NCBI GenBank assembly: GCA_020632555.1
Contig: JACKFI010000007.1
Location: 528-64,527, forward strand
Length of the DNA: 64,000 nt
From: Candidatus Omnitrophota bacterium
Lineage (GTDB): Bacteria; Omnitrophota; Gorgyraeia; Zapsychrales; JANLHA01
Reading direction: 5' to 3'
Program-made: the position numbers and the translations under genes
In this document: positions 4,355 through 47,092 of the stretch, one piece after another
How the letters are laid out: each line of letters opens with the position of its first letter
Numbering within the stretch: position 1 is the stretch's first letter
Notes under the pieces: model-generated
Told to the model about the DNA's origin: nothing
The model's input: the letters and a program-made list of their open reading frames with translations, nothing else
Databases searched by the model: none

Positions 4355-6184
4355 ATGACTGTTTATCTATTGGAAGATGAAAAAGATTTGGCCGTTTTGT
4401 TGGCAAAGGAGCCTGCACTTCAAAATCCGCATTGTTTATTTCTTCTTGATACAAGTCCTGAAAGTCAAGCTTTAATAGCCAAGCATTCTATTCAAAAAAT
4501 TCAATTGCCTGTGTGGGATAAAGAGTGTCGAGAGAAATGGCTGGCCGCTTATGTGTGTGCGGTCGGGCAAGTAAATCTGACTTTGCATAGCCGGTTGTGG
4601 TGGGCGACGGATTTTTCTTCAAAAAATCGGTTTAATTCTCATTTGCCACAACTGGTGCAAAAGTTTTTAATGATTGTTGAGGCGTGTGAAATCAGTCCAA
4701 AAGATGATGTGATTATTTGTTCGGTGCCTTGGCAGTTGCAAGGGGCGTTGAGGACATTTTTTTTAAAATCTGACATTGAATTTCAGGCGAAGTTTTCATT
4801 ATTAACCAAATATCAGGATTTAGGATTAGAGTTCTTAAAGCGTATCGGCAGTGGGTTATTTCATTTTGTTCGTTTGATAGGTCGGTTTATATTTGCGCGC
4901 ATGATATTAACAAGTAAACTACAGACTTTTTTAGAGAATAAGCCGTCAGCCTATGTGATTAAAACTTTTGTTTATGATCATTCTTTTTCAAGGGAAGGCA
5001 GATACAGGGATGTTTTCTTTGGACAATTGTCTGAGTTTTTGGTTAAAAATGGGCAGAAGGTTATTTTTCTTGCAAACATTCTTGGTGATTTCAAATCATG
5101 CGTAAAGAAAATTGCGCATTGTCCTCATGCCGATATTATTCCGATCGAGTATTGTGTTACGCTTGGGGATATTATTTCTGCGCTGTGGCAAAGTGTGATT
5201 TATCGACCGCAGGTTAAACAGGCCGTTTGGCTTGGAGAGCATGATATAAGTGATTTGATTAATGCAGAGTTGGCTAGTTGTTCTGGTAAAATTCAGATTT
5301 ATCAATATTTGCATTATGCGGCAACGCGCGCATTGCTCAAGACGATTGCGGCGAAGTGTTTTCTGCTAACGTATGAAAATAATCCGTGGGAAAAAATGTG
5401 TTTGTTAGCTTTTCGTGAGCAAGCGCTGCAAACAGAAATTCTGGGTTATCAGCATACGGTGACTCCGCAAGCGTCGGTGAATATGTTTATCAGTGCCGAG
5501 GAAGAGGGGGTTATTCCTAAACCGGATCGCGTTTTGACGGTTGGTGCTGCGACCAAGGACATTATTGATCGATACACACAGATTTCTTCCTTACCGGTGC
5601 AAGCTGCTTGCGCTTTGCGTTATGAAGTTTTATGGAATTTAAAACCTTTAGCGCGGACTAAAACGTTTAATATTCTGCTAGCCTTAGACGGGATTGTTGA
5701 AGTTTATGAGATGGTTAATTATGTGATTCAACAGCTTATTGACCAGAAAAAATACAAAATTATCATTCGAACTCATCCGGTTTTGCCAATATCCTTGATT
5801 GAGAATAAATTACTTTATAAGTTGGCGCGTTTACCTTTTGTCGAAATTTCCCAAGGTTATTCACCGATTCAGGATATTGAACGCACCGATATGACGATTT
5901 ATTGGGGAAGCACTGTTGCGCTGGAATCTTTGTGGATGGGCAAGCCGATTATTAATTTTGATAAACAAGATCTTTTTAGTTATGATCCGCTGTTTGACTG
6001 TCCGCATTTTAAGTGGACAGTTGGTCCTCATCAAGAGCTACGACCGGTTTTGGAGGAGATTTATGCGCTCACAGATGAAGATTTCTTGGCAGGCTACCAA
6101 AATGCGCATACTTATTTGGCTCAATATTTTTACCCAGTTAATCCTGCCAATATGAGTCCATTTTTACCCAGATTACAGTCGTAA
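4355..6184 (+). CDS. Large uncharacterised protein; C-terminal half looks like a GT-B/capsule-synthesis-type Rossmann transferase
   Basis: 609-aa ORF starting 9 nt after uppP. The C-terminal pattern ILLALDG...KIIIRTHP...IYWGSTVALESLWMGKPIINF resembles the nucleotide-sugar binding half of GT-B-like transferases. No firm family assignment by eye. Confidence 0.4.
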   Translation: MTVYLLEDEKDLAVLLAKEPALQNPHCLFLLDTSPESQALIAKHSIQKIQLPVWDKECREKWLAAYVCAVGQVNLTLHSRLWWATDFSSKNRFNSHLPQLVQKFLMIVEACEISPKDDVIICSVPWQLQGALRTFFLKSDIEFQAKFSLLTKYQDLGLEFLKRIGSGLFHFVRLIGRFIFARMILTSKLQTFLENKPSAYVIKTFVYDHSFSREGRYRDVFFGQLSEFLVKNGQKVIFLANILGDFKSCVKKIAHCPHADIIPIEYCVTLGDIISALWQSVIYRPQVKQAVWLGEHDISDLINAELASCSGKIQIYQYLHYAATRALLKTIAAKCFLLTYENNPWEKMCLLAFREQALQTEILGYQHTVTPQASVNMFISAEEEGVIPKPDRVLTVGAATKDIIDRYTQISSLPVQAACALRYEVLWNLKPLARTKTFNILLALDGIVEVYEMVNYVIQQLIDQKKYKIIIRTHPVLPISLIENKLLYKLARLPFVEISQGYSPIQDIERTDMTIYWGSTVALESLWMGKPIINFDKQDLFSYDPLFDCPHFKWTVGPHQELRPVLEEIYALTDEDFLAGYQNAHTYLAQYFYPVNPANMSPFLPRLQS

Positions 6185-6201
6185 ATAAGCTTATATAAAA
6201 A

Positions 6202-6230
6202 TTGACTATTTGGGGCTGTTCCGTTAGAAT
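6202..6230 (+). promoter_or_regulatory. Candidate sigma70-type promoter
   Basis: TTGACT (6202-6207), 17 nt spacer, TAGAAT (6225-6230), in the 84-nt gap upstream of the 6269 start. Confidence 0.4.
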
Positions 6231-6268
6231 TGTCTTCCGTTGCAACCCTTTTTTAACACTTTTTATTT

Positions 6269-7324
6269 ATGAATAAACCACTTAAATGCGGAATTGTTGG
6301 TTACGGCTATATGGGCGAAATTCGCCGGGCCGTGATTGAGCGTCATCCGGAAACGATGCAATTGATTGGTATTTGTGATACCAATGAAGCTATTCGCGGC
6401 AAAATAGGCGGTGTTCGAACCTTTGGCCGTTTGGAAGACCTCTTGGCTTTGAAGATTGATATCCTTTTTGTTTGCACGCCCAATTGTTTTTCTCCCGAAA
6501 TTTGTATGAAAGCCATGGATCAGGGAATTCATGTTTTTTGTGAAAAGCCGCCGGGTCGTGATGTTACAGATATTAAGAACATCATTGCGCATGAAAAGCA
6601 AGGGGTCAAATTGATGTTTGGTTTTAATCATCGTTTTCATCCCGGTATAGTTAAAGCGAAAGTGATTGTTGACAGTGGGCGTTTTGGGCGGATTCTGAAT
6701 TTGCGCGGGCTTTATGGCAAAAGCGGCGGTATTTCTTTTAAAAAATCATGGCGCAATAATCGTGAAATCTCCGGCGGGGGTATTTTGCTGGATCAAGGGA
6801 TTCATATGCTGGATCTCTTTTCGCATTTTTGCGGTGATTTTGAAGATGTCAAATGTTTTGCCAGTGATGATTTTTGGAAATTTGCGGTTGAAGATAATGC
6901 GTTTGTGATTTTGCAAAATCGCAAAGGTCAAAGCGCTTCGTGTCATTCTTCGGCGACATTTTGGAAACACACCTTTCGCTTGGACATTACGTTAGAAGAA
7001 GGATGCATGACAGTGGAAGGATTATTATCAAAGTCGGGCAGTTATGGCCGTGAAAAATTGATTGTTGCCAATCGTCAGTTTGAAGATGCCACGCATGCGG
7101 TGGGCAATCCCGCTGAAGAAGTGACCTATTTTGACCGTGATTTATCGTGGGATTTGGAAGTTGAAGAATTTGTCCGTTGTGTTATACAAGACAGTCCTGT
7201 GATAACGAGTTCTTCACAAGATGCTCTGCGGGTTATGGAAATGATTGAACGCGCTTATGCTGATGCCCAAAAACCTAAGTCATCGGCGAAGCATACGCAA
7301 AAACAAAACTTCGGCATAACTTAA
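6269..7324 (+). CDS. Gfo/Idh/MocA-family NAD(P)-dependent sugar oxidoreductase
   Basis: LKCGIVGYGYMGEIRR N-terminal Rossmann motif, EKPPG motif (CEKPPGRD), 351 aa. Confidence 0.8.
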   Translation: MNKPLKCGIVGYGYMGEIRRAVIERHPETMQLIGICDTNEAIRGKIGGVRTFGRLEDLLALKIDILFVCTPNCFSPEICMKAMDQGIHVFCEKPPGRDVTDIKNIIAHEKQGVKLMFGFNHRFHPGIVKAKVIVDSGRFGRILNLRGLYGKSGGISFKKSWRNNREISGGGILLDQGIHMLDLFSHFCGDFEDVKCFASDDFWKFAVEDNAFVILQNRKGQSASCHSSATFWKHTFRLDITLEEGCMTVEGLLSKSGSYGREKLIVANRQFEDATHAVGNPAEEVTYFDRDLSWDLEVEEFVRCVIQDSPVITSSSQDALRVMEMIERAYADAQKPKSSAKHTQKQNFGIT

Positions 7325-7326
7325 TC

Positions 7327-8343
7327 ATGAAAAATATTGTTATTAACGATCAGTACGATCAGCTGGATTTGAAGCCTTCGCAGCTTATTGAACGTTATAT
7401 TTCGTTGACGCAAAGGGATGTTGGTAAAATTTTGGCTGATCCTGCCCAATTGTCTGTTTGTCATTGTCCGGCTTGTGGCGCGACAGAAAAGCAGCAGGCT
7501 TTTGTAAAGTTTTCGCTGACATATCAAGAATGTCAACATTGTCGCACATTGTATGTGTCTCCTCGACCCAATGACACCATGCTTAACGATTATTATTTAA
7601 AGAGCGATGCACGCGCATTTTGGTGTAATGAGCTTTCTCAGCTCACTGATAAAAAGCGTAAAGAAAAAGTTATCAAGCCGCGTTTTCAATGGATTTTAGA
7701 ATCAACGCGTGAATATTTCCCCAATGCTAAGACATGGGTTGATATCAATACCAGTCAATACAGTTACATTGATGCGATGGCGGACGCGGATATTTTTGAG
7801 AATAAAATACTTTTAAATCCGTACTTACCTTTGGAGCCACAAGATTATCCTCGCGTCGCAATTGTCAAAAAACCGTGGTGGGAAGAGCCTGCTATTGACC
7901 AAGTTAGTGTGATTTCATTGTTTGAAGTGATAGATCATACAGCGGATGTCGGCCGGTTGATGGCGACGGTCAATGCAATGTTGAGCAAAGGCGGTTTGTG
8001 TTTTTTGACCGCAATTTTATCGTCGGGATTTGATATCCAGACTTTGTGGGAGCAGGCGGAAAATCTTCACCCGCCGGATCGTTTGAATTGTTTTAGCGTT
8101 AAAGGCTTACATGCTCTTTTTGAAAAATATGGTTTTGAATGTTTAGAGTTAAGTACGCCGGGTATTTTTGATTTGGAGTTTGTTGCCAAGAAATTAAAAG
8201 AACAGCCTTGCTTAAATGTTCCGCGTTTTGTTCGTGATTTGATTGAACGCAAAGATGAAGAAACCAAACGGGCCTTTCAGGAGTTTTTGCAAAGTGCTTG
8301 TATGAGTTCGTATGGACGGATATTGATTCGTAAAAAAGGATAA
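7327..8343 (+). CDS. Putative SAM-dependent methyltransferase with N-terminal Cys4 zinc ribbon
   Basis: CHCPACG...CQHC zinc-ribbon pattern. The C-terminal SLFEVIDHTADVGRLMATVNAMLSKGGLCFLT is typical of class I methyltransferase motifs. Motif I is atypical (no GxGxG). Confidence 0.55.
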   Translation: MKNIVINDQYDQLDLKPSQLIERYISLTQRDVGKILADPAQLSVCHCPACGATEKQQAFVKFSLTYQECQHCRTLYVSPRPNDTMLNDYYLKSDARAFWCNELSQLTDKKRKEKVIKPRFQWILESTREYFPNAKTWVDINTSQYSYIDAMADADIFENKILLNPYLPLEPQDYPRVAIVKKPWWEEPAIDQVSVISLFEVIDHTADVGRLMATVNAMLSKGGLCFLTAILSSGFDIQTLWEQAENLHPPDRLNCFSVKGLHALFEKYGFECLELSTPGIFDLEFVAKKLKEQPCLNVPRFVRDLIERKDEETKRAFQEFLQSACMSSYGRILIRKKG

Positions 8344-8347
8344 AAGA

Positions 8348-8950
8348 ATGTCATACATTAAAGATTATTGTCAGGAAGCTGGCCAAATCATTGCCGCTTT
8401 GGATCAAGGTCAAATTGAAAAAATGATTTCGATTCTTTTAGATGTTCGTAAAAATGGCGGGCGCTTATTCTTTTTAGGTGTTGGTGGTAGCGCGGCGAAT
8501 TGTTCGCATGCGGTGAATGATTTTCGTAAAATTGGTGGTTTCGAGGCCTATACACCGGTTGATAATGTCGCAGAATTAACGGCGCGCACCAATGATGAAG
8601 GCTGGAATACCGTTTTTGAAGGTTGGCTTAAAGGCTCGCGCATTAATGCTAAGGACGCGGTTTTTGTTTTCTCAGTCGGCGGCGGCAGTAAAGAAAAAAA
8701 TATCAGCGCGAATTTGGTTTACGGTCTTGATGTTGCCAAAGGAGTTGGGGCTAAGATTTTAGGTGTTGTGGGGCGTGATGGCGGCTATGCGGCTAAAGTG
8801 GCGGATGCGTGTGTGATCATTCCACCTCTTAATCCGGCGACGATTACGCCGCAGTCAGAAAGTTTTCAGGCGGTGGTTTGGCATATGATTGTTTCTGATC
8901 CGCGCATTATGGTGATGAGTAACAAGTGGGAATCAGTCGCTGTTACTTAG
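8348..8950 (+). CDS. SIS-domain sugar-phosphate isomerase (GmhA / phosphoheptose isomerase-like)
   Basis: GGRLFFLGVGGSAANCSHAVNDF and VFVFSVGGGS motifs; 200 aa. Confidence 0.8.
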   Translation: MSYIKDYCQEAGQIIAALDQGQIEKMISILLDVRKNGGRLFFLGVGGSAANCSHAVNDFRKIGGFEAYTPVDNVAELTARTNDEGWNTVFEGWLKGSRINAKDAVFVFSVGGGSKEKNISANLVYGLDVAKGVGAKILGVVGRDGGYAAKVADACVIIPPLNPATITPQSESFQAVVWHMIVSDPRIMVMSNKWESVAVT

Positions 8951-8957
8951 TTTTATC

Positions 8958-8981
8958 AATTGTGAGCGCGCGCTCACAATT
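8958..8981. repeat. Perfect 24-bp palindrome AATTGTGAGCGCGCGCTCACAATT in the SIS-tal intergenic gap (operator-like or RNA hairpin)
   Basis: Read directly: the 12-nt arms are exact reverse complements. It lies 8 nt after the stop at 8950 and 30 nt before the ATG at 9011. No U-tract follows. Confidence 0.9.
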
Positions 8982-9010
8982 CAAGAATCAAGCTCAAGGA
9001 AAGGTTTATT

Positions 9011-9691
9011 ATGGCCATTTATTTAGATACCAGCAATATTGATGAGATTCGTAAGTACACCAAGATGGGGATTATTTCCGGCGTTACGACCAACCCGACG
9101 ATTCTTCATAAAGAAGGTGCCTCTGGAGGAATGAAGGGTTTGAAAGAAAAAATGCTGGAAGTTGCGCGTATTGTCGCGCCGCATCCTTTGTCCGTTGAGG
9201 TGACGACCAATCATCGGGAGGGCATGATCGCGCAAGCCAAAGAAATAGCCGGGTGGGCAAAAAATATTGTGATCAAGATTACAGTGCATGGTCCCAACGG
9301 TGAGCTGGATAATATGTCAGTTATTCATGAATTGGAAACCAAACATGATATTCGTATTAATGTCACGGCGATGATGAGCGCTCAACAGTGCTTTTTGGCT
9401 GCTTTGGCGGGCGCCAGTTATGTTTCACTTTTGGGTGGCCGTGTTAATAATATGGGGTACAACTCGATTGAAGAAGTTAAGAAATTGCGTTATCTTTTAG
9501 ATCGTTATCAATTGAAAGCAAAAATTATCCTCGCATCGACACGTGAAATTTTAAATGTGATCGAATGGCTTTGCGCGGGCGCGGATATTGTGACGGTTGC
9601 CCCCAACTTTATTGAAGGGATGATTGTGCATCCTTACACGAAGGAAACGGTGCAAATGTTTTTGGCAGATGCCGCTAAAGCGGGACATTGA
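9011..9691 (+). CDS. Short-type transaldolase / fructose-6-phosphate aldolase (Tal/FSA family)
   Basis: MAIYLDTSNIDEIRKY...GVTTNPTIL N-terminus and VIKITV Schiff-base lysine region; 226 aa. Confidence 0.85.
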   Translation: MAIYLDTSNIDEIRKYTKMGIISGVTTNPTILHKEGASGGMKGLKEKMLEVARIVAPHPLSVEVTTNHREGMIAQAKEIAGWAKNIVIKITVHGPNGELDNMSVIHELETKHDIRINVTAMMSAQQCFLAALAGASYVSLLGGRVNNMGYNSIEEVKKLRYLLDRYQLKAKIILASTREILNVIEWLCAGADIVTVAPNFIEGMIVHPYTKETVQMFLADAAKAGH

Positions 9692-9704
9692 AAGGACCTT
9701 GGCA

Positions 9705-10487
9705 ATGAACAGATCGTTAAACAAGAGGCAAGAATTAAAACAAAAATTTCAAAAGTGTGAAACAATTTTTGGTTCGTGGACGTCTTTAGCGCATCCTTCG
9801 ATAACTGAAATTTTTGCTCGTTCAGGGGTAGGTTTTCTGGGTATTGATTTGGAACACAGCACGACCAGTCAGGAACAGTCACAGCGGATTATTGCGGCCG
9901 CGCAAGCGGACGGTGTTGTCTGTTTGCCGCGTGTTGCCTCACATAATCCAGAAATGATTCGCCGTGTTCTTGATTCCGGCGCGGATGGCATGATTGTGCC
10001 GATGGTACAAAATGCTTTAGACGTTGAGCGGATGATTGAATGGGCGAAATATCCGCCTTTGGGTCGTCGTGGTTTTGGTGTTTCGCGTGCGCAGGGTTAT
10101 GGTATGGATTTTGGGGAATATACTCAGACGTGGAACGACAGTTCGATTATGATTGCGCAAATTGAGTCTATTGGTGCCGTTGACCGTATTGATGAAATTT
10201 TATCTTTTAAAGAATTGGATGGAGTTATGGTTGGCCCGTACGATATTTCCGGTTCATTGGGTATTCCTGGACAAATTGAACATCAAAAGGTGCTGGACGC
10301 CAGCAAGAGGGTGATTGCGGCTTGTCAACGTCATAAAAAATCCTGCGGGACACATCTTGTGGAAGCCAGTGAACAGCGTATCAAGAAGGCTTTAGAAACA
10401 GGTTTTAGTTTTGTGATCCTTTCTTCGGATGTGTTTTTATTGTGGAAATGGGCCGAACAAATTAAGAATTTAATTTCTGTTAAGTAA
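9705..10487 (+). CDS. HpcH/HpaI-family class II (pyruvate) aldolase
   Basis: FGSWTSLAHPSITEIFARSGVGFLGIDLEHS, MIVPMV, PPLGRRG, ESIGAV, GPYDIS motifs. I trimmed the track ORF (9624) to the ATG at 9705, just after the tal stop, with an AAAGGA RBS. Confidence 0.8.
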   Translation: MNRSLNKRQELKQKFQKCETIFGSWTSLAHPSITEIFARSGVGFLGIDLEHSTTSQEQSQRIIAAAQADGVVCLPRVASHNPEMIRRVLDSGADGMIVPMVQNALDVERMIEWAKYPPLGRRGFGVSRAQGYGMDFGEYTQTWNDSSIMIAQIESIGAVDRIDEILSFKELDGVMVGPYDISGSLGIPGQIEHQKVLDASKRVIAACQRHKKSCGTHLVEASEQRIKKALETGFSFVILSSDVFLLWKWAEQIKNLISVK

Positions 10488-10513
10488 AGTTTTATTTTGA
10501 ATGGTTCTTTTAT

Positions 10514-11167
10514 ATGAAAAACTATCAGGCTATTATCCTTGATTTTGACGGAGTTATTGTGGAATCGGTTGGAATTAAGGATGATGCTTTTCGTGAATTA
10601 TTTAAGGATTTTCCCCATCATCTGGATTCTATCATGACGTATCATTTGACGAATAATGCGATTATTCGTTATGAAAAGTTCAAAGTCATTTATGAGGAAA
10701 TATTAGGATTGCCGTATACGGCAGAAGTTTCTGCTCGTTTGGGTGCGCAGTTTTCGAAAATGATTTTTGAGAAAATTGTTTTGTGCCCATTTGTTAAAGG
10801 GGCATTGGAGTTTTTAGGAGAATTTGAGAAACAGACTTTGTTTTACTTGGTGTCGATTAATCCGGCACAGGAGTTAAAGTCGATTTTGGCTGCCAAGAAG
10901 ATTGATCGTTTTTTTTGTGATGTCTATGCTTATCCATGGGGCAAGGCGGATGCGATTCGTGAAATTTTGCAACGCAATGATTTCTTAGAAAAAGATGTTG
11001 TTTTTATTGGCGATAGTCCAGAGGATTATCAGGCTGCCAAAATGGTTGGGATTGATTTTATTGGCCGTCAGTCTGTTCGTTCGTGGGATGGCAAAGGATG
11101 TTTGGTTTTTAATGATTTGCAGGAAATTGCGAATTATTTGAAGATACAGAATGGTGCGGTTCTTTAA
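10514..11167 (+). CDS. HAD-superfamily phosphatase (phosphoglycolate phosphatase-like subfamily)
   Basis: Motif I ILDFDGVIVES, a later VSINP motif, and IGDSPEDYQAA (motif IV-like). Confidence 0.8.
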   Translation: MKNYQAIILDFDGVIVESVGIKDDAFRELFKDFPHHLDSIMTYHLTNNAIIRYEKFKVIYEEILGLPYTAEVSARLGAQFSKMIFEKIVLCPFVKGALEFLGEFEKQTLFYLVSINPAQELKSILAAKKIDRFFCDVYAYPWGKADAIREILQRNDFLEKDVVFIGDSPEDYQAAKMVGIDFIGRQSVRSWDGKGCLVFNDLQEIANYLKIQNGAVL

Positions 11168-11282
11168 TCTGCGGTGTACCAGTAAATTCCGGTAAAATGT
11201 TTTTTGTTAAGAATTGTTGAGATTCAATAGGTCCGGCAATTAAGGGATAGTTTTTAATCATGTATTGCGGAGTTCTAATAGA

Positions 11283-12044
11283 ATGAAAGTGGTCGCTGTC
11301 ATCCCTGCCCGCATGGGTTCTTCTCGCTTTCCTGGAAAACCACTCAAGAAAATTCTCGATTTGCCGATGGTGGAGCATGTTCGCCGTCGTGCTTTGTTGT
11401 GTAAGGCTGTTGATGAGGTTGTGGTTGCAACGTGTGATCAAGAAATTATTGATGCTGTTAATCAAGCTGGCGGCAAAGCGGTGATGACATCTGATAAACA
11501 TGAGCGCTGCACGGATCGCGTTGAAGAGGCGGTTCGCGGCAGTTCTGCCGATCTGGTGATTGTTTTGCAGGGCGATGAGCCATTGTTGGGTTTAGATGTT
11601 ATTGATCAATTGATAACGCCATTTGAGGCGGATCAAAATGTATTGTGCACGAACCTGATTTCGGTGATTCATGATGAAACTGATTTGGATAATCGTGATA
11701 TTGTTAAAGCGGTTTTGAATCAAAAGAATGACGTTTTGTGTTTTTCTCGATCAGCGATTCCTTATCGCCGGGTTAAGACTGAATGTCCTCTGTATCGGCA
11801 AACAGGATTCTCAGTTTTTCGCCGTTTATTTCTCGAACAATTTTCTCAATTGCCGCCGACACCTTTGGAAATCTTAGAATCGGTTGATTTCCTGCGAATT
11901 TTAGAGCATGGGTATTCGATTCACGGCGTGATTTATCGGCAGGTTACTGTTGGCGTTGACCGGCCGGGCGATATCGCCGTTGTTGAAAATATTCTCAAAA
12001 ATGATCCCGTGCAAAAAAAGATTTACGAAATGATTTGTCAATGA
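11283..12044 (+). CDS. KdsB-like cytidylyltransferase (3-deoxy-ulosonate / CMP-sugar-acid synthetase family)
   Basis: MKVVAVIPARMGSSRFPGKPLKKILDLPMVEHV and VLQGDEPL motifs, typical of CMP-Kdo synthetase-type enzymes. ATG at 11283 preferred over 11265. Confidence 0.8.
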   Translation: MKVVAVIPARMGSSRFPGKPLKKILDLPMVEHVRRRALLCKAVDEVVVATCDQEIIDAVNQAGGKAVMTSDKHERCTDRVEEAVRGSSADLVIVLQGDEPLLGLDVIDQLITPFEADQNVLCTNLISVIHDETDLDNRDIVKAVLNQKNDVLCFSRSAIPYRRVKTECPLYRQTGFSVFRRLFLEQFSQLPPTPLEILESVDFLRILEHGYSIHGVIYRQVTVGVDRPGDIAVVENILKNDPVQKKIYEMICQ

Positions 12045-12970
12045 CTAAGCCGAAGATTCTTGTCGCTTTATCGACGTTTGCCCAATACGGCGAAAAACCA
12101 GTAGAACTTTTAAAAAGCAGCGGCTTGCCATTTGTTCTTAACTCAACCGGGCAACGTTTGAATACGGATGATATTTTAAAACTTGGGCAGGACTGTCAGG
12201 GAATTATTGCTGGTGTTGAACCATATACGAAAGATGTGTTGTCTCAACTTCCGAATCTGCGTTGTATTAGCCGCTGTGGGGTGGGAATTGATAGTATTGA
12301 TTTGGCTAAAGCCAAGGAATTAGAGATCAAAATTCTCAATACACCAAATCCTGTGATTGTGCCGGTTGCGGAGTTGACCGTTGGGATGATGCTGGATCTT
12401 TTGCGTCAAATTACGTGGCATACGGTGACCTTACGTAATCAAAAATGGCAGAAAAAAGGTGGATATAATTTGCAGGGTAAAACGGTTGGCATTATTGGTT
12501 TAGGGCGTATCGGGAAAAAAGTTGCACAACTTTTGAAAAGTTTTTCTGTGGATGTGATAGCGTCGGACTCTTATCCTGATGATCTTTGGGCGAAGGAAAA
12601 TAATATTCGAATGGTGTCAGTTGAGGAATTATTGAGAAATTCTGATATTGTGACTTTGCATTTGAAGACAGACAAGAGATTTCCTTTTGTTTTAGGAGAA
12701 AAAGAAATTCGAATGATGAAGTCTAAAGCTTTTTTGTTAAATCTTGCGCGCGGAGAGATGGTGGATGAAAATGCGCTTTATTGTGCTTTGACTCAAGGAC
12801 ATTTGGCTGGTGCTGGATTGGATGTTTTTTCACAGGAACCTTATAGCGGGAAATTGGCTACGCTGGATAATGTTTTGATGACGCCGCATATCGCGACTTT
12901 AACAGCGGAGTCGCGGTTAGAAATGGAAACACAAGCGGTAGAAAATCTTTTAACATGGTTTGGGTCGTAA
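12041..12970 (+). CDS. D-isomer-specific 2-hydroxyacid dehydrogenase (phosphoglycerate dehydrogenase-like, no ACT domain)
   Basis: GKTVGIIGLGRIGKKVA NAD motif, LNLARGEMVDE, GAGLDVF, MTPHIA. The ATG at 12041 overlaps the upstream TGA (ATGA). Confidence 0.85.
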   Translation: MTKPKILVALSTFAQYGEKPVELLKSSGLPFVLNSTGQRLNTDDILKLGQDCQGIIAGVEPYTKDVLSQLPNLRCISRCGVGIDSIDLAKAKELEIKILNTPNPVIVPVAELTVGMMLDLLRQITWHTVTLRNQKWQKKGGYNLQGKTVGIIGLGRIGKKVAQLLKSFSVDVIASDSYPDDLWAKENNIRMVSVEELLRNSDIVTLHLKTDKRFPFVLGEKEIRMMKSKAFLLNLARGEMVDENALYCALTQGHLAGAGLDVFSQEPYSGKLATLDNVLMTPHIATLTAESRLEMETQAVENLLTWFGS

Positions 12971-12978
12971 ATTCAACG

Positions 12979-13680
12979 ATGAGCTTTGCAGATTTTAAAA
13001 ATAAATTGCATCCGTTTGAGCTGACCATGCGTCTGCATGCGTTTTTGACTTGGCCGGCAATGACGCGCAAAGAAATGCAAATCTTAAAGCGTATTTTTTT
13101 GTCATTTCCCAAAGAACAAACGATTCATATATTTGAGTATGGGATGGGTTTTTCAACAGTTTATTTTGCGAAGTTTTTGCGAAAAGCGGGTTATTTATTT
13201 CATTTGTATTCGGTGGATAATAATCGTTTCTGGTATGAAAAAGTAACAGCTATGATCAAGTCTGAGAAATTGACAGAACATGTTACTTTGCATTTGCGTG
13301 AATTTATTCCGTTCTGGGAGAAACCGGGTTGGGATTGGACATCAGAGCCGCAACAAGGAGTTTTCGCTCCGCAAACTCAAATGGAATTAGAGTATATCAA
13401 TTTGCCGCAGATGTTGAAGATTCCTTTTAATGTCATTTTTGTCGATGCGCGTTTTCGCCGGCGTTGTTTGGAAGCGGCACTGACGAGTGTTGATTATCGC
13501 GGGTTTGTGATCATGCATGATGCCCAGAAGAAACATTATCATTCGGCAACTGAAAAATATCGGTATTCACGATTTATTGACAGTGGTCAATATTTTCCCT
13601 TTGCTCGGCGCAAGTATCAACTGTGGTTAGGTAGTCCGATGAATTCTTTGGTTGACAAAATTGCTGTGGAATTTGATTAA
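12979..13680 (+). CDS. Hypothetical protein, possibly a class I methyltransferase-fold enzyme
   Basis: IFEYGMGFSTVYFA (resembles motif I of Methyltransf_24-like proteins) and VIFVDA...MHDA. Weak assignment. Confidence 0.4.
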   Translation: MSFADFKNKLHPFELTMRLHAFLTWPAMTRKEMQILKRIFLSFPKEQTIHIFEYGMGFSTVYFAKFLRKAGYLFHLYSVDNNRFWYEKVTAMIKSEKLTEHVTLHLREFIPFWEKPGWDWTSEPQQGVFAPQTQMELEYINLPQMLKIPFNVIFVDARFRRRCLEAALTSVDYRGFVIMHDAQKKHYHSATEKYRYSRFIDSGQYFPFARRKYQLWLGSPMNSLVDKIAVEFD

Positions 13681-13681
13681 T

Positions 13682-14809
13682 ATGGCCCACCCTGAAATTA
13701 CAGTTTTGATGACGGTTTATAATGGCGGCGCATATTTAAAAATGGCGGTCGAGAGTGTTCTTAAACAAACTTTTACGGATTTTGAATTTCTCATTATTGA
13801 CGATTGTAGTTTGGACCAGTCTCGGGAGACTATTCTTTCTTTTAAAGATGAGCGAATTAAGTTGATCAAAAATGAAATCAATCTGGGACAAACACGTTCA
13901 CTTAACAAAGGGTTAGCTTTAGCGCAAGGCCGGTATATCGCGCGCATTGACGCGGATGATTTTGTTTTTTCGTCATGGCTTGAGAAGACTTTGGCTTTAT
14001 TGAAAGCTCAGCCTTTGACTGCCGTTGTCAGTTGCAAGGCGATTGTTGTTGATGAGCAACATAAGATTCGCAAAACATTAAGGACGGGGTGTTGTTATGC
14101 GCAAATGGTTTTACGTTCCTTGACAGCGACACCGTTGAATCATGTTGGTGCTCTTTATAAAGTTGATGTGATTTCTTCTGTTGGGGGATACGATGAAACA
14201 TTTAAGATTGCGGCGGATTTTGAGTTATGGTCAAGATTGATTCGCCGCCGTATTCAATTGGCTTGCATTGATGAGCCATTGGTCGCAATTCGTGTGCATG
14301 CTAAGTCTGAGAGTATGATTCAACGAGGCCAGATTGATATGATTGAAATTTCGGAAGTTATGAAGCGGAACTTTGACGTCTTGATTGCATTTGAAATTTC
14401 CCGGCCAGAGATTGAATTGTTATGGAAACTGCATTATGCGACGATACAATTAAGTGCGGTTGAGTTTCAAGATGCTTTCATGCTGTTGTGTAAAGCCTAC
14501 AGAACGATGAAAGCGGAATTCGCCGTATCTTCTGACGCTGTTGAGGCCTTTATTGCTCATCAGAAGAAAGTATTCTATGCCAAGCGGGCTTTAGGTCAGA
14601 TGGCGCAAGGACAGCTGCCGCAACTGCGGGTTTTGGCTAAGGATTATTGTAAGACAGAAGGGTGGCTGAATCTTTTGTCTTTGGTGTGGTTGGGGACATG
14701 GCTTGGAAAGCCGGCATTGAGAAATTTGCCTATTATTTATGAACGATGGCGCGGCTGGATAGCAAGAAAGAAATTGCCGCATCAGGTTTATTCGGAATGT
14801 GTGCGTTAA
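13682..14809 (+). CDS. Family 2 glycosyltransferase
   Basis: ITVLMTVYNGGAYLKMAVESVLKQTFTDFEFLIIDDCSLDQS and ARIDADD (DxD) motifs. Confidence 0.85.
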   Translation: MAHPEITVLMTVYNGGAYLKMAVESVLKQTFTDFEFLIIDDCSLDQSRETILSFKDERIKLIKNEINLGQTRSLNKGLALAQGRYIARIDADDFVFSSWLEKTLALLKAQPLTAVVSCKAIVVDEQHKIRKTLRTGCCYAQMVLRSLTATPLNHVGALYKVDVISSVGGYDETFKIAADFELWSRLIRRRIQLACIDEPLVAIRVHAKSESMIQRGQIDMIEISEVMKRNFDVLIAFEISRPEIELLWKLHYATIQLSAVEFQDAFMLLCKAYRTMKAEFAVSSDAVEAFIAHQKKVFYAKRALGQMAQGQLPQLRVLAKDYCKTEGWLNLLSLVWLGTWLGKPALRNLPIIYERWRGWIARKKLPHQVYSECVR

Positions 14810-14813
14810 GATC

Positions 14814-16319
14814 ATGTTAAAAATGTCTGATGATATTTTGCAAAAGATTATTAAAAGGATCATTTTGGTTCTGGTTGGTTTCTTTTGTTATTTTTATGCT
14901 TTGTATGCGTCCGATTTTGCTGAACTGCATATTCAATTTGCTGGTCTGGATTTTCCGATTTTTATTGGAGAAATTCTTTTGGGTGTTTGTGTTCTCTTGT
15001 TTTTGATTTATATTTTAAAATTTTCGGTATGTTTCAACTTGAGATTTGTTTGGCTGGGGACACTTTACGTGTCGTGGGTATTAGCTAAAGCGTTTTTAGG
15101 GTATGTTCATTGGGGGCCGCTGGCATTGCGCAATGCGGCGTTATTTTATTATCCGTTTTTTGCTTTGATTGGGTATATGATTTTTGAACGTTCACTTTAT
15201 CAAGGTTTGGGTCGATGGTTTCTATTAGGTTTTTTGTTGTGGAATCTGCTTTTTGTTAATATCAATGATTATTTTGTTATAGCGTTTTTGATGTTAGCTT
15301 TTGGTTTGTCTTGGCATTTACGTCAGCAAGTTCTACGATTTGCTGGAATTTTTCTTTGTGCTTTTTATGTTATCCATTCTCGGGTTATGTGGTGGGGTTG
15401 CCGGTCGCATATGGTTGGCATTGGTGTAATGGCTATTTTTCTGGCGGGGTATTTTCTTTTTGGGATGTTTAAAGCGCAACGGCGGGTTAAGTTATTGACC
15501 TTGTTTGTTTTGGTGGTGATATTTGTTGGCTTTCTTTTTAAATTTGGCGACCACAATGCTTTAAAATCGATGATGACGTTTCGCCAATTAGTAAAGGAAT
15601 ATAAGAAGTTGGATGTGGATGTTCGCAAGAATGAGACAACGTATATTCATGAACCGTTGATTGTCAGGCTTTATAATGAAAACAGTAAAACTCTGCCTTT
15701 ATTTACAAATAAAAATAGTAAAAACCAATCTTTATTTCTAGATAAGCCGCGGGAAGAAGTTGAAAAACATTCTTTACCGGAAATAAAAATGATAGCAGAA
15801 CCGAGTCAAGTGCCCGTTGAGCCCGCTGTACAATCAGATTCGTCCCCAAGTCATGAGCGTCGGCTTGATGTTGCTTATGCTAATATTTGTTTTCGTCTTT
15901 TTGTTTGGAAGGATATGGTGGACGATTTTATAAAACAAAAGGCATGGGGTGGCGTTAGCTTTGGGCAGCCGCAACGTTCTCCATCCTTGGAAGCGGCGCA
16001 TTGGGCTACCGCGGATTGGTTGCGGGATGGGTGGATTACGCCGCATAATTCTTTTTTGCATATGATTTATCGAGGGGGGTTAGTGGGATTTGTTTGTGTG
16101 GTTATGATTTTTGGTCTATTAGTTAATATGACTCGACGTTTTCTAAAACTTCGTTCTGTCTGGGGAGGCCTCTTGGTGGGGTGTTTGGTGTACTGGGTGA
16201 CGATTAGTAATTTCTTGGTATTTTTAGAATTTCCTTATAATGCAATTCCGTTTTGGACTTTTTGGGGAATGACGTTGGCGTATTTGCATACACTGGAGAA
16301 AGATTCTTTATGCGCTTGA
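14814..16319 (+). CDS. O-antigen ligase/polymerase-like (Wzy_C) membrane protein with a large soluble insert
   Basis: About 10 hydrophobic helices. A signature PHNSFLHMIYRGGLVG follows a hydrophilic segment of roughly 130 aa. Confidence 0.6.
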   Translation: MLKMSDDILQKIIKRIILVLVGFFCYFYALYASDFAELHIQFAGLDFPIFIGEILLGVCVLLFLIYILKFSVCFNLRFVWLGTLYVSWVLAKAFLGYVHWGPLALRNAALFYYPFFALIGYMIFERSLYQGLGRWFLLGFLLWNLLFVNINDYFVIAFLMLAFGLSWHLRQQVLRFAGIFLCAFYVIHSRVMWWGCRSHMVGIGVMAIFLAGYFLFGMFKAQRRVKLLTLFVLVVIFVGFLFKFGDHNALKSMMTFRQLVKEYKKLDVDVRKNETTYIHEPLIVRLYNENSKTLPLFTNKNSKNQSLFLDKPREEVEKHSLPEIKMIAEPSQVPVEPAVQSDSSPSHERRLDVAYANICFRLFVWKDMVDDFIKQKAWGGVSFGQPQRSPSLEAAHWATADWLRDGWITPHNSFLHMIYRGGLVGFVCVVMIFGLLVNMTRRFLKLRSVWGGLLVGCLVYWVTISNFLVFLEFPYNAIPFWTFWGMTLAYLHTLEKDSLCA

Positions 16320-18088
16320 TAAAATTAATGTTTAAAGAGTGGGTGGTTTTGACCATTCTTCTATTTGTTGGGCTAGCGGTTGGTATTCTCGAAGGTATGG
16401 GGATTGCTGTTTTTTTGCCCATTTTGCAGAGTCAGGATGCGATGAATGTTGGGGCGTTGCCAAAATTCTTTCGCGTTCCATTTGAGTTTTTGAGTCATTA
16501 TTCTTTGGGCGATAAAATTCGCATTATTTCAGTTTTATTATTGGCGGTTAATCTTTTGCGTTTAGGCTTTATTTATATAGATATCAACCTTTCCGTTTTT
16601 GTGCGAACCAAGGTTTTGACTCATTACAAAATGGAATGTATGAAACAGATGATGAAAATGAATATGGGTTTCTATAATCATCGGCGATTATCAGATTTTC
16701 AGCTGTTGTTTAAGAATCGAATTGAATCGCATATTGGGATGATTATTGAAGTTTTATGTAATGCGCTTCCTGCCGTTTTAACATCGATTATTTTGGTTGT
16801 GCTGCTGGTGATGTCTTCATGGAAAATCTCGCTTATTCTTTTAGTTTCTTTAGGAATCTCCGGATTCTTGCTGGAATTGTTGGCGCGATTGGTCAGAAAA
16901 TCAGGCAGTCAGTATATCAAGACAGAGGCAAGCTTTAATAAGATTCTTTTTGACATTATCAATGGCATGAAAATTATACGAACTTTTAACGCTCAGAATT
17001 TGATGCTTCAGAATTTCCAGGGTGAAGTTAAGGAGTTGATCAAGTCTTATAACCGGATGTCGGTTATAACAAAATTAGTTGGACCTTTCTTTGAAGTTTG
17101 TGGCGTTTTAATTATTTGTGTAATTCTTATTTGCGGCACGATGTTATTCGATGGACATAATAGTTCAAAAATCTTACTCACATTGTTCACTTTTGTTTTA
17201 ATTTTGGCACGATTGATTCCAGCTTTAAAACAAATTAATCATGCCTGGGGGACTATTGCCGCGCGGTTATCTGGTCTTAAGGAAGCTGATCAATTCTTGA
17301 TGACAGAAGAAACAGAAAGTTTGCAAAATGGGCAGATAGTATTTTCTGATTTAAGTGACAGTATCGAGTTTAAAGATGTTACATTCTCTTATGACCTAAA
17401 GGATAAGGTTGTTTTGGATCATGTAAGTTTTACGATTAAAAAAGGACAAAGAGTTGGTATTATTGGCGCGTCGGGTTCTGGAAAATCTACTTTGACGGAG
17501 CTTCTTTTACGTTTTTATGATCCGCAAACTGGAGGCATTTGGGTCGATGGAGTTAATTTGCAAGAATTAGATATTTTGTCTTTTAGAAATCATATTGGTG
17601 TTGTCCCTCAGGATGTTTTTCTTTTTAATGAAACGGTCAAAGGCAATATTGGTTTCTCCAAGCCGCAAGCTACAGATATGGAAATCAAAGATGCCGCTTT
17701 GCGTGCTAATGCTCACGAGTTTATTAAGAATCTTCCGGCTGGATATTCAACGAATATTGGTGAACGCGGTGTTTTGCTTTCTGGAGGCCAAAGGCAGAGA
17801 ATTGTTATCGCTCGAGCTATTTTGAGAGATCCGCAGATTTTGATTTTTGATGAAGCAACTTCAGCGTTAGATACGAATTCGGAACGGTTGGTGCAACAGT
17901 CATTAAATAATATTGCTAAGGGTAAGACCGTAATTATTATCGCGCATCGTTTGTCGACGGTTGCCGATTGCGATCAAATTATTGTTTTAGAACGCGGGAA
18001 GATTATTGAGAAGGGCTTGCGGGAAGAACTTCTTAGCAAAGATAGCGTTTATAAAGGATTGGTTAATGAACAGTCAATTGTTATTTAG
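16310..18088 (+). CDS. MsbA-like ABC exporter (fused permease and ATPase)
   Basis: N-terminal 6-TM region. Walker A GASGSGKST, signature LSGGQRQRIVIARA, Walker B ILIFDEATSALD. ATG at 16310 overlaps the upstream stop. Confidence 0.85.
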   Translation: MRLIKLMFKEWVVLTILLFVGLAVGILEGMGIAVFLPILQSQDAMNVGALPKFFRVPFEFLSHYSLGDKIRIISVLLLAVNLLRLGFIYIDINLSVFVRTKVLTHYKMECMKQMMKMNMGFYNHRRLSDFQLLFKNRIESHIGMIIEVLCNALPAVLTSIILVVLLVMSSWKISLILLVSLGISGFLLELLARLVRKSGSQYIKTEASFNKILFDIINGMKIIRTFNAQNLMLQNFQGEVKELIKSYNRMSVITKLVGPFFEVCGVLIICVILICGTMLFDGHNSSKILLTLFTFVLILARLIPALKQINHAWGTIAARLSGLKEADQFLMTEETESLQNGQIVFSDLSDSIEFKDVTFSYDLKDKVVLDHVSFTIKKGQRVGIIGASGSGKSTLTELLLRFYDPQTGGIWVDGVNLQELDILSFRNHIGVVPQDVFLFNETVKGNIGFSKPQATDMEIKDAALRANAHEFIKNLPAGYSTNIGERGVLLSGGQRQRIVIARAILRDPQILIFDEATSALDTNSERLVQQSLNNIAKGKTVIIIAHRLSTVADCDQIIVLERGKIIEKGLREELLSKDSVYKGLVNEQSIVI

Positions 18089-18175
18089 TTTTAGAATGCG
18101 GTGTACAGAATATGTTGAAAGTTCACTTGAAGCAGTTGGGCCATTGATCAAATTATTAAAACATGAGGGACGTTG

Positions 18176-20123: not shown

Positions 20124-20127
20124 ATCG

Positions 20128-21090: not shown

Positions 21091-21096
21091 TTCTTT

Positions 21097-25024: not shown

Positions 25025-25035
25025 AAAGGTATGGA

Positions 25036-25950: not shown

Positions 25951-25978
25951 CGCCAAAGTTTGTTGGTGAGGTTATTTT

Positions 25979-26635: not shown

Positions 26636-26647
26636 TGGAGAAATCAT

Positions 26648-27865: not shown

Positions 27866-27869
27866 TCGA

Positions 27870-30305: not shown

Positions 30306-30315
30306 AGAAAATTTT

Positions 30316-35706: not shown

Positions 35707-35739
35707 CATTAGATATCATGAAATCGGGAAAGGACAGTA

Positions 35740-47040: not shown

Positions 47041-47092
47041 GCTTTTTTTCTTGCGGGTTTCAGAAATATTCCAAAATAAATAAAGGGTTTGT

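Follow-up and report, generated by a model that had tools for sequence, protein, structure and literature searches.

Which sugar is activated by a gene cluster that follows the logic of CMP-Kdo synthesis, but with enzymes of other families? In the 64,000-nucleotide stretch of DNA analysed here (the window), six plus-strand open reading frames (ORFs) lie back to back and fill positions 8348–12970, their ends matching exactly the borders given in a preliminary description of the locus. The contiguous run claimed there (SIS isomerase, transaldolase, HpcH aldolase, HAD phosphatase, KdsB-like enzyme and 2-hydroxyacid dehydrogenase) was verified by ORF calls and family assignment, and the catalytic motifs are intact in all six proteins.

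Extent and conservation of the cassette

The conserved unit is wider than these six genes on both sides and spans approximately 4355–13680 (Table 1). The limits first proposed were thus too narrow, missing the co-conserved f12, GFO, the methyltransferase-like protein MT23L and MT24. The cassette genes are tightly packed in the window, with intergenic gaps of –16 to 115 nt; the CMPT and 2HADH genes overlap by 4 nt.

Table 1. Genes of the cassette and its downstream neighbour in the window.
Gene	Assignment	Position	Strand	Evidence
f12	Candidate glycosyltransferase for the CMP-sugar, 609 aa, GT-B fold	4355..6184	+	Weak NCBIfam, AF2, Foldseek
GFO	Gfo/Idh/MocA NAD(P) sugar oxidoreductase	6269..7324	+	Pfam PF01408, PF22725, PF02894
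MT23L	Zn-ribbon and class I methyltransferase-fold protein	7327..8343	+	Pfam Methyltransf_23, AF2, Foldseek
SIS	GmhA-like SIS_2 sugar-phosphate isomerase	8348..8950	+	SIS_2, NCBIfam gmhA, PDB 1TK9
TAL	Short transaldolase, TAL type	9011..9691	+	Pfam TAL_FSA 135 bits, PDB 3S0C
HpcH	Class II metal-dependent pyruvate aldolase of the HpcH/HpaI family, hallmark of the module	9705..10487	+	Pfam PF03328, HpcH_HpaI
HAD	HAD-IA phosphatase	10514..11167	+	Pfam HAD_2 and Hydrolase, NCBIfam HAD-SF-IA
CMPT	KdsB-family CTP:ulosonate cytidylyltransferase, altered sugar pocket	11283..12044	+	CTP_transf_3, PRK13368
2HADH	D-isomer-specific 2-hydroxyacid dehydrogenase, translationally coupled to CMPT	12041..12970	+	Pfam 2-Hacid_dh, 2-Hacid_dh_C
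MT24	Methyltransf_24 methyltransferase, lineage-specific accessory gene	12955..13680	+	Pfam PF13578
GT2	GT2 glycosyltransferase, frequent downstream neighbour	13682..14809	+	Pfam Glycos_transf_2

A CMPT gene lies near the HpcH orthologue in 71 of 83 loci. Considering only fully flanked loci, defined as those in other genomes where the sequence reaches 6 kb or more upstream and 8 kb or more downstream of the HpcH orthologue, CMPT falls within the flanks in 40 of 46, which argues that the adjacency of the two genes is not due to chance. The co-occurrence of an HpcH aldolase with a KdsB-like gene in other glycan loci, put forward for checking in the preliminary description, is thereby borne out. 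The GFO/MT23L/2HADH and SIS/TAL/HAD sets occur together in 27 of the 46. Carriers span at least ten phyla and include Omnitrophota, Flavobacteriia, Legionella, Chloroflexota and one methanogenic archaeon of the Methanomicrobiaceae. To our knowledge, neither Methanomicrobiaceae archaea nor Chloroflexota would be expected to have an LPS/Kdo pathway. The genes thus form one linked module in glycan loci, as had been suggested, conserved and co-inherited across other genomes. Most related loci add two classical SDRs (mannonate, gluconate-5 or KduD-like) and several methyltransferases; the SDR pair is not found in the window. One locus without SIS and TAL (L049) has an HldE-like heptose gene adjoining the cassette. 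A literature search found no description of the HpcH–CMPT cassette, which appears to be previously undescribed.

The cytidylyltransferase has an altered sugar pocket

CMPT clears the models of the KdsB subfamily (PRK13368 with 274 bits, cut-off 255; the TIGR00466 cut-off is also passed), and its top PDB match is the capsule-type enzyme K-CKS (KpsU, 1GQ9). R10, K19, Q98 and D100 are conserved and the nucleotide-site CTP/Mg residues are kept. The sugar site differs: H181 is replaced by Q, Y185 by S, and the LEQLR motif reads VDFLR. Roles of Q98 and Y185 in KdsB-type enzymes have been described (PMC12199768). Of 48 CMPT members from type A loci, 47 have lost the Kdo ligands H181 and Y185, as have all 15 from the type B loci introduced below. 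As both residues contact the C5 hydroxyl of Kdo, the sugar bound by CMPT is probably not Kdo, and its product is likely a non-Kdo sugar. The unusual product suggested earlier therefore appears likely from the sugar-contact residues of this KdsB-like enzyme.

Enzymes of the proposed precursor route

Pfam and NCBIfam profile searches detected no KdsA, KdsC or KdsD in the window, and the profiles bear out that HpcH, HAD and SIS are not orthologous to these enzymes. The isomerase is GmhA-like, as described previously: its top NCBIfam match is gmhA (43 bits, far under the cut-off of 209) and its top PDB match is GmhA, 1TK9. H54, D58, E171 and H179 are invariant across 40 family members, with a spacing that we take to be that of the metal and catalytic positions of GmhA.

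The nearest solved structure to the transaldolase is Thermoplasma transaldolase 3S0C; in the alignment of the two, the Schiff-base Lys, Glu and Asn/Thr are all retained and a Leu occupies the Phe/Tyr position. Because the TAL Glu is kept and Leu stands where FSA enzymes have their catalytic Tyr, the protein is of TAL and not of FSA type; of the earlier label 'short transaldolase/FSA', only the first half holds. Orthologues in other phyla are 56–92% identical, and the gene is absent from a few loci (L036, L044, L029). The HAD enzyme gives weak matches to phosphoglycolate-phosphatase models, and no KdsC model is among the NCBIfam matches listed, in keeping with its original classification. Its DxDG and GDxxxD motifs are conserved in the family, and the gene lies directly 3' of HpcH in most type A loci.

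HpcH scores 106 bits against HpcH_HpaI and reaches none of the HpaI, GarL and RhmA equivalog cut-offs. It has the fold of YfaU/RhmA, GarL and HpaI, which reversibly combine pyruvate with aldehydes into 4-hydroxy-2-oxo (3-deoxy-2-ulosonic) acids, and contains their residues for binding metal and pyruvate; none of H51, R76, E154 and D180 varies among 20 diverse orthologues. Characterised enzymes of the HpcH family are catabolic and use non-phosphorylated substrates, whereas the module subfamily forms a clade of its own, tightly conserved (50–96% identity across phyla) and confined to glycan loci, beside a CMP-transferase. In the tree a long branch separates it from 3QZ6, its closest PDB entry. 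A phosphate site specific to the family was not found.

Within this same aldolase family, nested inside the type A tree, lies a clade of approximately 18 type B loci. Here HpcH directly adjoins a KdsA-like gene whose product scores above the equivalog cut-offs for KDO8P synthase, and the SIS, TAL, HAD, GFO and 2HADH genes are missing. If the HpcH aldolase builds the sugar backbone, this arrangement is left unexplained; its role may therefore differ from, or go beyond, backbone building. The proposed substitution of HpcH for KdsA is accordingly plausible for the window but not secure.

Oxidoreductases, methyltransferases and a candidate transferase

GFO, found by tblastn in 50 of 83 loci, is nearest in structure to inositol dehydrogenase, DgpA and aldose–aldose oxidoreductase. 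A natural GFO–MT23L fusion protein exists (P0386), whose N-terminal part is 44% identical to the window GFO. The MT23L family counts 523 representatives at the 50% identity level (E ≤ 1e-30). Pfam Methyltransf_23 covers only its residues 191–274; its AF2 model (pLDDT 88.4) has the sugar C3-methyltransferases MtmC (4RV9) and KijD1 (5T6B) as best-coverage Foldseek matches. Like these and other TylC3-type enzymes, MT23L combines a Zn-ribbon with a methyltransferase domain and is coupled to an oxidoreductase, which could supply the activating keto group. Unlike them, it has no recognisable glycine-rich SAM motif (motif I shows no conservation within the MT23L family), and its substrate would not be an NDP-4-keto-hexose.

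2HADH, encoded after CMPT in 51 loci and directly so in most type A loci, is PGDH-like (222 bits, against a PGDH equivalog cut-off of 454). Its top PDB match is 1WWK, and the catalytic triad of Arg, Glu and His is visible in the alignment. The roles we propose below for GFO, MT23L and 2HADH are guesses. MT24 follows 2HADH in 12–13 loci, mostly of Omnitrophota, and the GT2 gene is present in 32–35 loci.

The protein f12, encoded upstream of GFO in 21 loci, had no match in the Pfam search. It weakly matches the NCBIfam 'surface carbohydrate biosynthesis protein' models TIGR04326/TIGR04396 and a BFO_1060 glycosyltransferase model, which we presume to be tied to nonulosonic-acid loci. Its AF2 model (pLDDT 92.7) returns only generic GT-B enzymes in Foldseek. 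f12 is homologous (hhalign probability 100%, E 5e-48) to f10, the product of the gene after CMPT in type B loci, and GT-B homologues thus accompany both cassette types.

Proposed pathway and alternatives

Our preferred reading, held tentatively and at a little under an even chance, is that a horizontally mobile cassette makes a non-Kdo, CMP-activated 2-keto sugar acid, which a dedicated GT-B transferase would pass to a surface glycan. Every step is drawn from family membership and synteny. The transaldolase would make more of a ketose phosphate available (in the simplest case sedoheptulose-7-P), which the isomerase would turn into an aldose phosphate, as in GmhA and LmbR/LmbN. Attack of the pyruvate enolate on the aldehyde, catalysed by HpcH, would yield a 3-deoxy-2-ulosonate phosphate; the adjacency of HpcH and HAD suggests such a phosphorylated aldol product. 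The HAD enzyme would remove the phosphate and CMPT would form the CMP-sugar. GFO and MT23L may carry out oxidation-enabled enolate chemistry (epimerisation or C-methylation), and an intermediate that is an alpha-keto or alpha-hydroxy acid may be the substrate of 2HADH. The SDR pair and several methyltransferases would tailor the sugar further in most related loci, the window lacking the former.

It is possible, if rather unlikely, that the backbone does not come from HpcH. In loci of the window type, SIS would then provide an aldose phosphate, GFO would oxidise C1 to give an aldonate phosphate and 2HADH would oxidise C2 to give a 2-keto-aldonate phosphate, with the KdsA-like synthase of type B loci yielding an equivalent 2-keto-3-deoxy acid and HpcH performing a common step. 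This step could be C4 epimerisation (retro-aldol and re-addition), C3 enolisation, or addition of pyruvate onto the keto group, the branched diacid of the last version fitting no known natural product. Aldose C1 dehydrogenases and 2-ketogluconate reductases do occur in the GFO and 2HADH families, and the scheme would explain both the nesting of type B aldolases and why GFO/MT23L/2HADH (with SIS/TAL/HAD) and KdsA'/CBS are mutually exclusive around a constant HpcH–(SDR–SDR)–CMPT–transferase core. However, it gives no role to the methyltransferase-like partner fused to GFO, makes 3-hydroxy and 3-deoxy keto acids odd shared substrates of one enzyme, and sits poorly with the phosphorylated product hinted at by HpcH–HAD adjacency. 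Moreover, 3 of the 46 fully flanked loci (L049 and L067 among them) carry GFO/MT23L/2HADH with neither SIS/TAL/HAD nor KdsA'.

Two further readings concern the product. We regard it as improbable that this is a short-chain, non-glycosidic CMP-keto or -hydroxy acid, for instance from pyruvate and a C2–C4 aldehyde phosphate (glyceraldehyde-3-P or erythrose-4-P, say), destined for a phosphodiester- or acyl-type glycan substituent instead of a higher ulosonic residue. By their family names, HpcH enzymes usually handle C5–C7 acids, transaldolase also gives erythrose-4-P and glyceraldehyde-3-P, and small alpha-keto acids would suit 2HADH; but the co-conserved GmhA-like ketose/aldose isomerase, the large dedicated GT-B protein and the retention of Q98 and the Mg/CTP residues in CMPT all speak against it, as does KdsB-family activation, which targets the anomeric hydroxyl of pyranose ulosonic acids. 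An ordinary reading, in which the KdsB-like gene serves CMP-Kdo synthesis with Kdo from another source and its neighbours are unrelated paralogues of central metabolism or catabolism, adjacent by accident, is disfavoured and very improbable. A PGAP-type pipeline would annotate KdsB from the cut-offs passed; yet the adjacency to HpcH is kept across phyla, with orthologues 50–90% identical, the pocket is altered in nearly all members, an archaeon and Chloroflexota carry the cassette, and the glycan island around it has transferases of its own.

Comparison with known systems

The preferred pathway shares with CMP-Kdo synthesis (KdsD, KdsA, KdsC, KdsB; KpsF/KpsU in capsules) the sequence of isomerase, C3-unit condensation, phosphatase and CMP activation, and its cytidylyltransferase is a true KdsB-family member. 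It differs in having a GmhA-like SIS_2 isomerase without CBS domains, a class II aldolase dependent on pyruvate as the candidate for condensation, with no DAHP_synth_1 in the window, and a HAD-IA phosphatase rather than KdsC. GFO, MT23L, 2HADH and TAL are additions.

The transaldolase-supplied sugar phosphate of the preliminary description has an experimental precedent in LmbR/LmbN, where, by published description, a dedicated transaldolase builds a higher ketose phosphate and a GmhA-like isomerase converts it to the aldose phosphate (PMC5854111, PMC4351081). Later steps of this lincomycin octose-8-phosphate route involve a phosphatase and oxidoreductases of the Gfo family (PMC5854111, PMC4351081, PMC12945683). 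Whereas a kinase and a guanylyltransferase there lead to GDP-octose, the module continues with a pyruvate aldolase and a CMP-transferase.

With the sialic acid, Kdn and other nonulosonic acid pathways (NeuB-type synthase, 9-phosphate phosphatase, NeuA), the module has in common the order of synthase, HAD phosphatase and CMP-transferase and a dedicated transferase, but it has no NeuB/SAF enzyme. A separate, complete NeuB/NeuC/PtmE/NeuA-type pathway lies at 18173–31506 of the same window.

Organisation of the gene cassette

It is well supported that the cassette is a mobile pathway dedicated to making a CMP-activated 2-keto sugar acid that is not Kdo, with its own transferase included. The preliminary description had listed six genes between positions 8348 and 12970 of the window, and exactly those six ORFs were found there (Table). 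The conserved unit exceeds this interval, taking in a candidate GT-B transferase (f12), a Gfo/Idh/MocA oxidoreductase (GFO) and a methyltransferase-fold protein (MT23L) upstream as well as a Methyltransf_24 gene downstream, which is followed by a GT2 gene. Intergenic gaps range from -16 to 115 nt, and the genes for the cytidylyltransferase (CMPT) and the dehydrogenase (2HADH) overlap by 4 nt. In the gene calls of public contigs, the aldolase HpcH begins at the ATG. Existing annotations are generic only ('RhmA', '4-hydroxy-2-oxovalerate aldolase', 'methyltransferase domain-containing protein' and 'hypothetical protein').

Over the 64 kb, long ORFs are confined to the + strand; GC content is about 0.40, with a strongly positive GC skew from end to end. 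The skew amounts to about +0.2 in each 2-kb bin across positions 1-64000, an unusually uniform strand bias. Searches of the window yielded no tRNA or Rfam matches, and a promoter and terminator scan returned nothing above chance.

Table. Positions and family assignments of the cassette genes and of a separate NeuB-type pathway in the window
Feature	Position	Strand	Assignment
f12	4355-6184	+	609 aa; candidate GT-B transferase
GFO	6269-7324	+	Gfo/Idh/MocA oxidoreductase
MT23L	7327-8343	+	338 aa; Zn-ribbon and methyltransferase fold
SIS	8348-8950	+	isomerase; SIS_2, GmhA-like
TAL	9011-9691	+	transaldolase; TAL_FSA
HpcH	9705-10487	+	aldolase; HpcH_HpaI
HAD	10514-11167	+	phosphatase; HAD-IA
CMPT	11283-12044	+	cytidylyltransferase; CTP_transf_3, KdsB family
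2HADH	12041-12970	+	D-2-hydroxyacid dehydrogenase
NeuB-type pathway	18173-31506		extended SDR, two GFO genes, PglD-like acetyltransferase, NeuB, NeuC-like epimerase, PtmE-like NTP-transferase with CBS domains, HisF/HisH-like pair, another GFO, NeuA-like gene, PtmA-like SDR, DegT aminotransferase
NeuA-like gene	28798-29517		CTP_transf_3
SDR	29514-30305		PtmA-like

Enzyme subtypes and catalytic residues

HpcH scored 106 bits against PF03328 (cut-off 25) and stayed below the equivalog cut-offs of HpaI (144 versus 369), GarL (134 versus 407) and RhmA (118 versus 441). Its nearest structure is the uncharacterised 3QZ6. Residues H51, R76, E154 and D180, which we take to be the equivalents of H45, R70, E149 and D175, the catalytic and metal residues of HpaI, are invariant across 20 diverse orthologues.

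The isomerase is GmhA-like rather than KdsD-like, as originally described. This 200-aa SIS_2 protein finds its best matches among GmhA models and lacks a CBS domain, whereas the canonical isomerase of CMP-Kdo synthesis, KdsD/KpsF, combines the SIS domain with two CBS domains. Its matches are confined to GmhA structures and models and are weak (43 bits against an equivalog cut-off of 209). All 40 family members compared share H54, D58, E171 and H179, which are spaced as in GmhA; the phosphate loop carries an insertion. The assignment of the phosphatase to the phosphoglycolate-phosphatase kind, and not to KdsC, likewise agrees with our searches: the protein carries DxDG and GDxxxD motifs, matches the HAD-IA subfamily model and has weak matches to phosphoglycolate-phosphatase models, with no KdsC model among the listed matches. 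Canonical KdsC, in contrast, is a HAD-IIIA enzyme.

Of two other labels in the preliminary description, transaldolase/FSA and SerA-like, the FSA and SerA readings were rejected. In a full-length alignment with Thermoplasma transaldolase 3S0C, the transaldolase retains the Lys that forms the Schiff base, the acid-base Glu and the Asn/Thr pair, and has Leu at the Phe position (the catalytic Tyr in FSA). With Lys and Glu aligned and Leu at the Phe position, the protein is thus TAL-like; the Glu and the missing FSA Tyr rule out FSA. Its score falls short of the transaldolase equivalog cut-offs (163 versus 246). In an alignment with 1WWK, the dehydrogenase has its catalytic triad of Arg, Glu and His in place, and the PGDH segment IIVRSKPKVT reads IIAGVEP-YT (VRS..K is gone). 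The absence of this motif, together with a TIGR01327 score of 222 against a cut-off of 454, rules out SerA.

Distribution and locus types

HpcH orthologues, 50-96% identical across phyla, occur in Omnitrophota, Marinimicrobia, Margulisiibacteriota, Chloroflexota, Elusimicrobia, Aminicenantes, SAR324, Desulfobacterota, Nitrospirota, Bdellovibrionota, Alpha- and Gammaproteobacteria, Flavobacteriia and one Methanomicrobiaceae archaeon, represented by the MAG JAFGKW01. Synteny was counted by tblastn and ORF clustering over 83 loci, 46 of which were fully flanked (at least 6 kb upstream and at least 8 kb downstream of HpcH). A CMPT gene lies near HpcH in 71 of the 83 loci. The linkage of the aldolase with a KdsB-like gene in other loci, put forward earlier as a check on the module, is borne out, with both together in 40 of the 46 fully flanked loci.

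The constant core consists of HpcH, usually two classical SDRs, CMPT and a GT-B protein, either f12 or f10; these two are homologous (hhalign probability 100%). To this core, type A loci, including the window, add both GFO, MT23L and 2HADH and the SIS, TAL and HAD genes (27/46 fully flanked loci). The SDR pair is absent within the scanned range from the window and from four type A loci (of 27) that keep CMPT. Type C loci, such as L049, add GFO, MT23L and 2HADH only. In L049, the cassette without SIS, TAL and HAD is followed at 14808-16337 by a single HldE-like gene, bifunctional with PfkB kinase and cytidylyltransferase-like parts, a heptose-pathway context.

Type B loci (L041, L047, L050-L052, L057, L059, L062, L063, L068-L070, L073, L076 and L080) include Flavobacteriia, Legionella, Methylobacter and Aquirufa, the last with Aquirufa sp. 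1-SAACH-A3 (L068). Of the 46 fully flanked loci, 12 are type B. Here, the core is joined by a KdsA-like synthase and a stand-alone CBS pair resembling the KpsF C-terminus, in the order KdsA-like gene, CBS pair, HpcH, SDR, SDR, CMPT, f10. The KdsA-like gene scores above KDO8P-synthase cut-offs, but 14 of 15 members carry KDCRS in place of the KANRS motif, a substitution suggesting that the enzyme acts on a different aldose phosphate. A neighbour-joining tree groups the type B aldolases into a single clade that branches within the type A sequences.

The slot between HAD and CMPT is variable (L001, L003, L011, L067, L083 and others), holding FkbM-, NanM-, TylF- and Methyltransf_23/12-type methyltransferases and hexapeptide acetyltransferases, suggesting heavy O-methylation or acetylation of the sugar in many cases.

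The cytidylyltransferase departs from KdsB in its sugar pocket

CMPT scores above the cut-offs of the KdsB models PRK13368 (274 versus 255 bits) and TIGR00466 (169 versus 155), with E. coli KpsU (1GQ9) as the nearest structure. It shares with KdsB the family membership and the CTP/Mg residues, kept as R10, K19, Q98 and D100, but not the Kdo-contact positions: in the window protein H181 is replaced by Q, Y185 by S and LEQLR by VDFLR. We count the LEQLR motif, by assumption, among the Kdo-contact residues. In E. coli KdsB, Y185 binds the C5 hydroxyl of Kdo and H181 is an active-site residue (PMC12199768). H181 is kept in no locus compared, and Y185 in one type A member alone.

The combined pocket signature of the window type, QSDFD, was found in 28 of 67 CMPTs compared. 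Hydrophobic signatures (ILDQN and similar) occur in a minority of type A and C loci, and IIEQN in type B. QSDFD does not differ between loci that have the SDR pair and loci that lack it, and the SDRs therefore give no handle on the identity of the sugar.

Because the cassette CMPTs pass current KdsB models, annotation pipelines will label them CMP-Kdo synthetases, and Kdo or LPS would then be falsely attributed to organisms that may possess neither. Such mislabelling would reach the archaeal and Chloroflexota orthologues, despite their absent Kdo-contact residues.

MT23L, GFO and the GT-B protein

The MT23L model has a pLDDT of 88, and its best-coverage Foldseek matches are the sugar C3-methyltransferases MtmC and KijD1. 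A glycine-rich SAM motif is not recognisable across the family, which comprises 523 representatives at 50% identity with E<=1e-30. One member, P0386 (705 aa), is a natural GFO-MT23L fusion whose GFO part is 44% identical to the window GFO, arguing for a functional tie between both proteins. The couple could plausibly carry out keto-enabled enolate chemistry. In P0438 and P0473, MT23L is fused to other N-terminal domains, that of P0473 appearing FkbM-like.

The f12 protein models as a GT-B enzyme (pLDDT 92.7) and weakly matches TIGR04326/TIGR04396 and the BFO_1060 glycosyltransferase model. Foldseek returned generic GT-B matches only for f12, with no specific relationship to sialyl- or Kdo-transferases.

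Proposed pathway and role of the aldolase

For window-type loci, the most economical route would comprise five steps. The transaldolase would yield a ketose phosphate that the GmhA-like isomerase would convert to an aldose phosphate; HpcH would join this to pyruvate, giving a 3-deoxy-2-ulosonate phosphate, from which HAD would strip the phosphate before the KdsB-like enzyme attaches CMP. Experimental precedent for the first two enzymes comes from LmbR/LmbN, a transaldolase and GmhA-like pair shown to build octose-8-phosphate (PMC5854111, PMC4351081). In the window, a dedicated transaldolase gene adjoins that of a GmhA-like isomerase, a likeness of gene pairing. The precursor might be sedoheptulose-7-P/heptose-7-P, as weakly indicated by GmhA enzymes being the isomerase's only characterised relatives and by the heptose gene adjoining a cassette without SIS and TAL. 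A heptose-7-P precursor would lead to a C10 acid. Where present, the SDR pair resembles mannonate, gluconate-5 and KduD dehydrogenases, and this likeness to enzymes oxidising or reducing the penultimate carbon of sugar acids suggests epimerisation at that carbon.

We classify the cassette within known CMP-ulosonic acid biosynthesis. To our knowledge, all characterised CMP-ulosonic acids (Kdo, Kdn, sialic, pseudaminic and legionaminic) are made by PEP-dependent KdsA/NeuB-type synthases. KdsA, KdsC and KdsD are all missing from the window; DAHP_synth_1, the KdsA family, had no match among annotated ORFs across it, and a KdsA-like gene occurs in type B relatives only. The proposal that HpcH takes the place of KdsA may hold for the window itself but is less certain in view of type B, where the same aldolase clade stands beside a KdsA-like synthase and the GFO/MT23L/2HADH and SIS/TAL/HAD sets are both absent. 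One possibility is that the type B synthase contributes to a different residue, with the aldolase drawing on a housekeeping aldose phosphate. The other is that the aldolase performs a tailoring step shared by the locus types, in which case the 2-keto acid of type A loci would arise through oxidation by GFO/2HADH. We therefore regard HpcH as a possible builder of the sugar backbone, at slightly under an even chance.

That the product represents a new class of sugar has a modest probability. The full proposal, a CMP-activated higher-carbon 3-deoxy-2-ulosonic acid (for example C10, from heptose-7-phosphate and pyruvate) made by a pyruvate-dependent class II aldolase replacing PEP-dependent KdsA/NeuB and displayed on the surfaces of many uncultured phyla and some archaea, is unlikely on present evidence. 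In the published full-text literature, we found neither a description of the cassette nor a natural C10/C11 ulosonic acid. A widespread route centred on a pyruvate-dependent class II aldolase would represent new biosynthetic logic, and would probably extend the prokaryotic surface-glycan repertoire by a new acidic sugar. The Omnitrophota, Marinimicrobia, Margulisiibacteriota, Elusimicrobia and Aminicenantes carriers are known from metagenomes only. Aquirufa, Legionella, Methylobacter and Ensifer are carrier genera with cultured members, which makes the question directly testable.

The surrounding glycan island

The module sits within a glycan island of about 55 kb that ends at pgk-tpiA-secG. 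The island also holds BacA, a PseB-like dehydratase, an ABC exporter, a GDP-mannose dehydratase, a Wzy_C protein, GT2, GT4 and WecG transferases and a Bac_transf initiating transferase. Moreover, it contains a complete, separate nonulosonic acid pathway of the NeuB/NeuC/PtmE/HisFH/NeuA type (canonical, legionaminic-type). Two distinct CMP-sugar pathways therefore share the island. The NeuA-like cytidylyltransferase would serve the NeuB pathway, leaving the KdsB-like CMPT presumably to serve the module's own product. The SDR gene directly after the NeuA-like gene was considered for the window's missing SDR pair and ruled out, because it is PtmA-like and belongs to the separate NeuB-type pathway.

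Four large ORFs (530, 553, 701 and 726 aa; 34114-37401, 37430-39535 and 42294-44474) have no Pfam match. The 701-aa ORF recurs in 9 related loci and is weakly related at the profile level to the TIGR04417 'PFTS motif' polysaccharide proteins of other loci (hhalign probability 75%). At 44536-48160, an 834-aa Hsp70/MreB-like protein is followed by a Ser/Thr protein kinase amid glycan-biosynthesis genes, an unusual neighbourhood for both.
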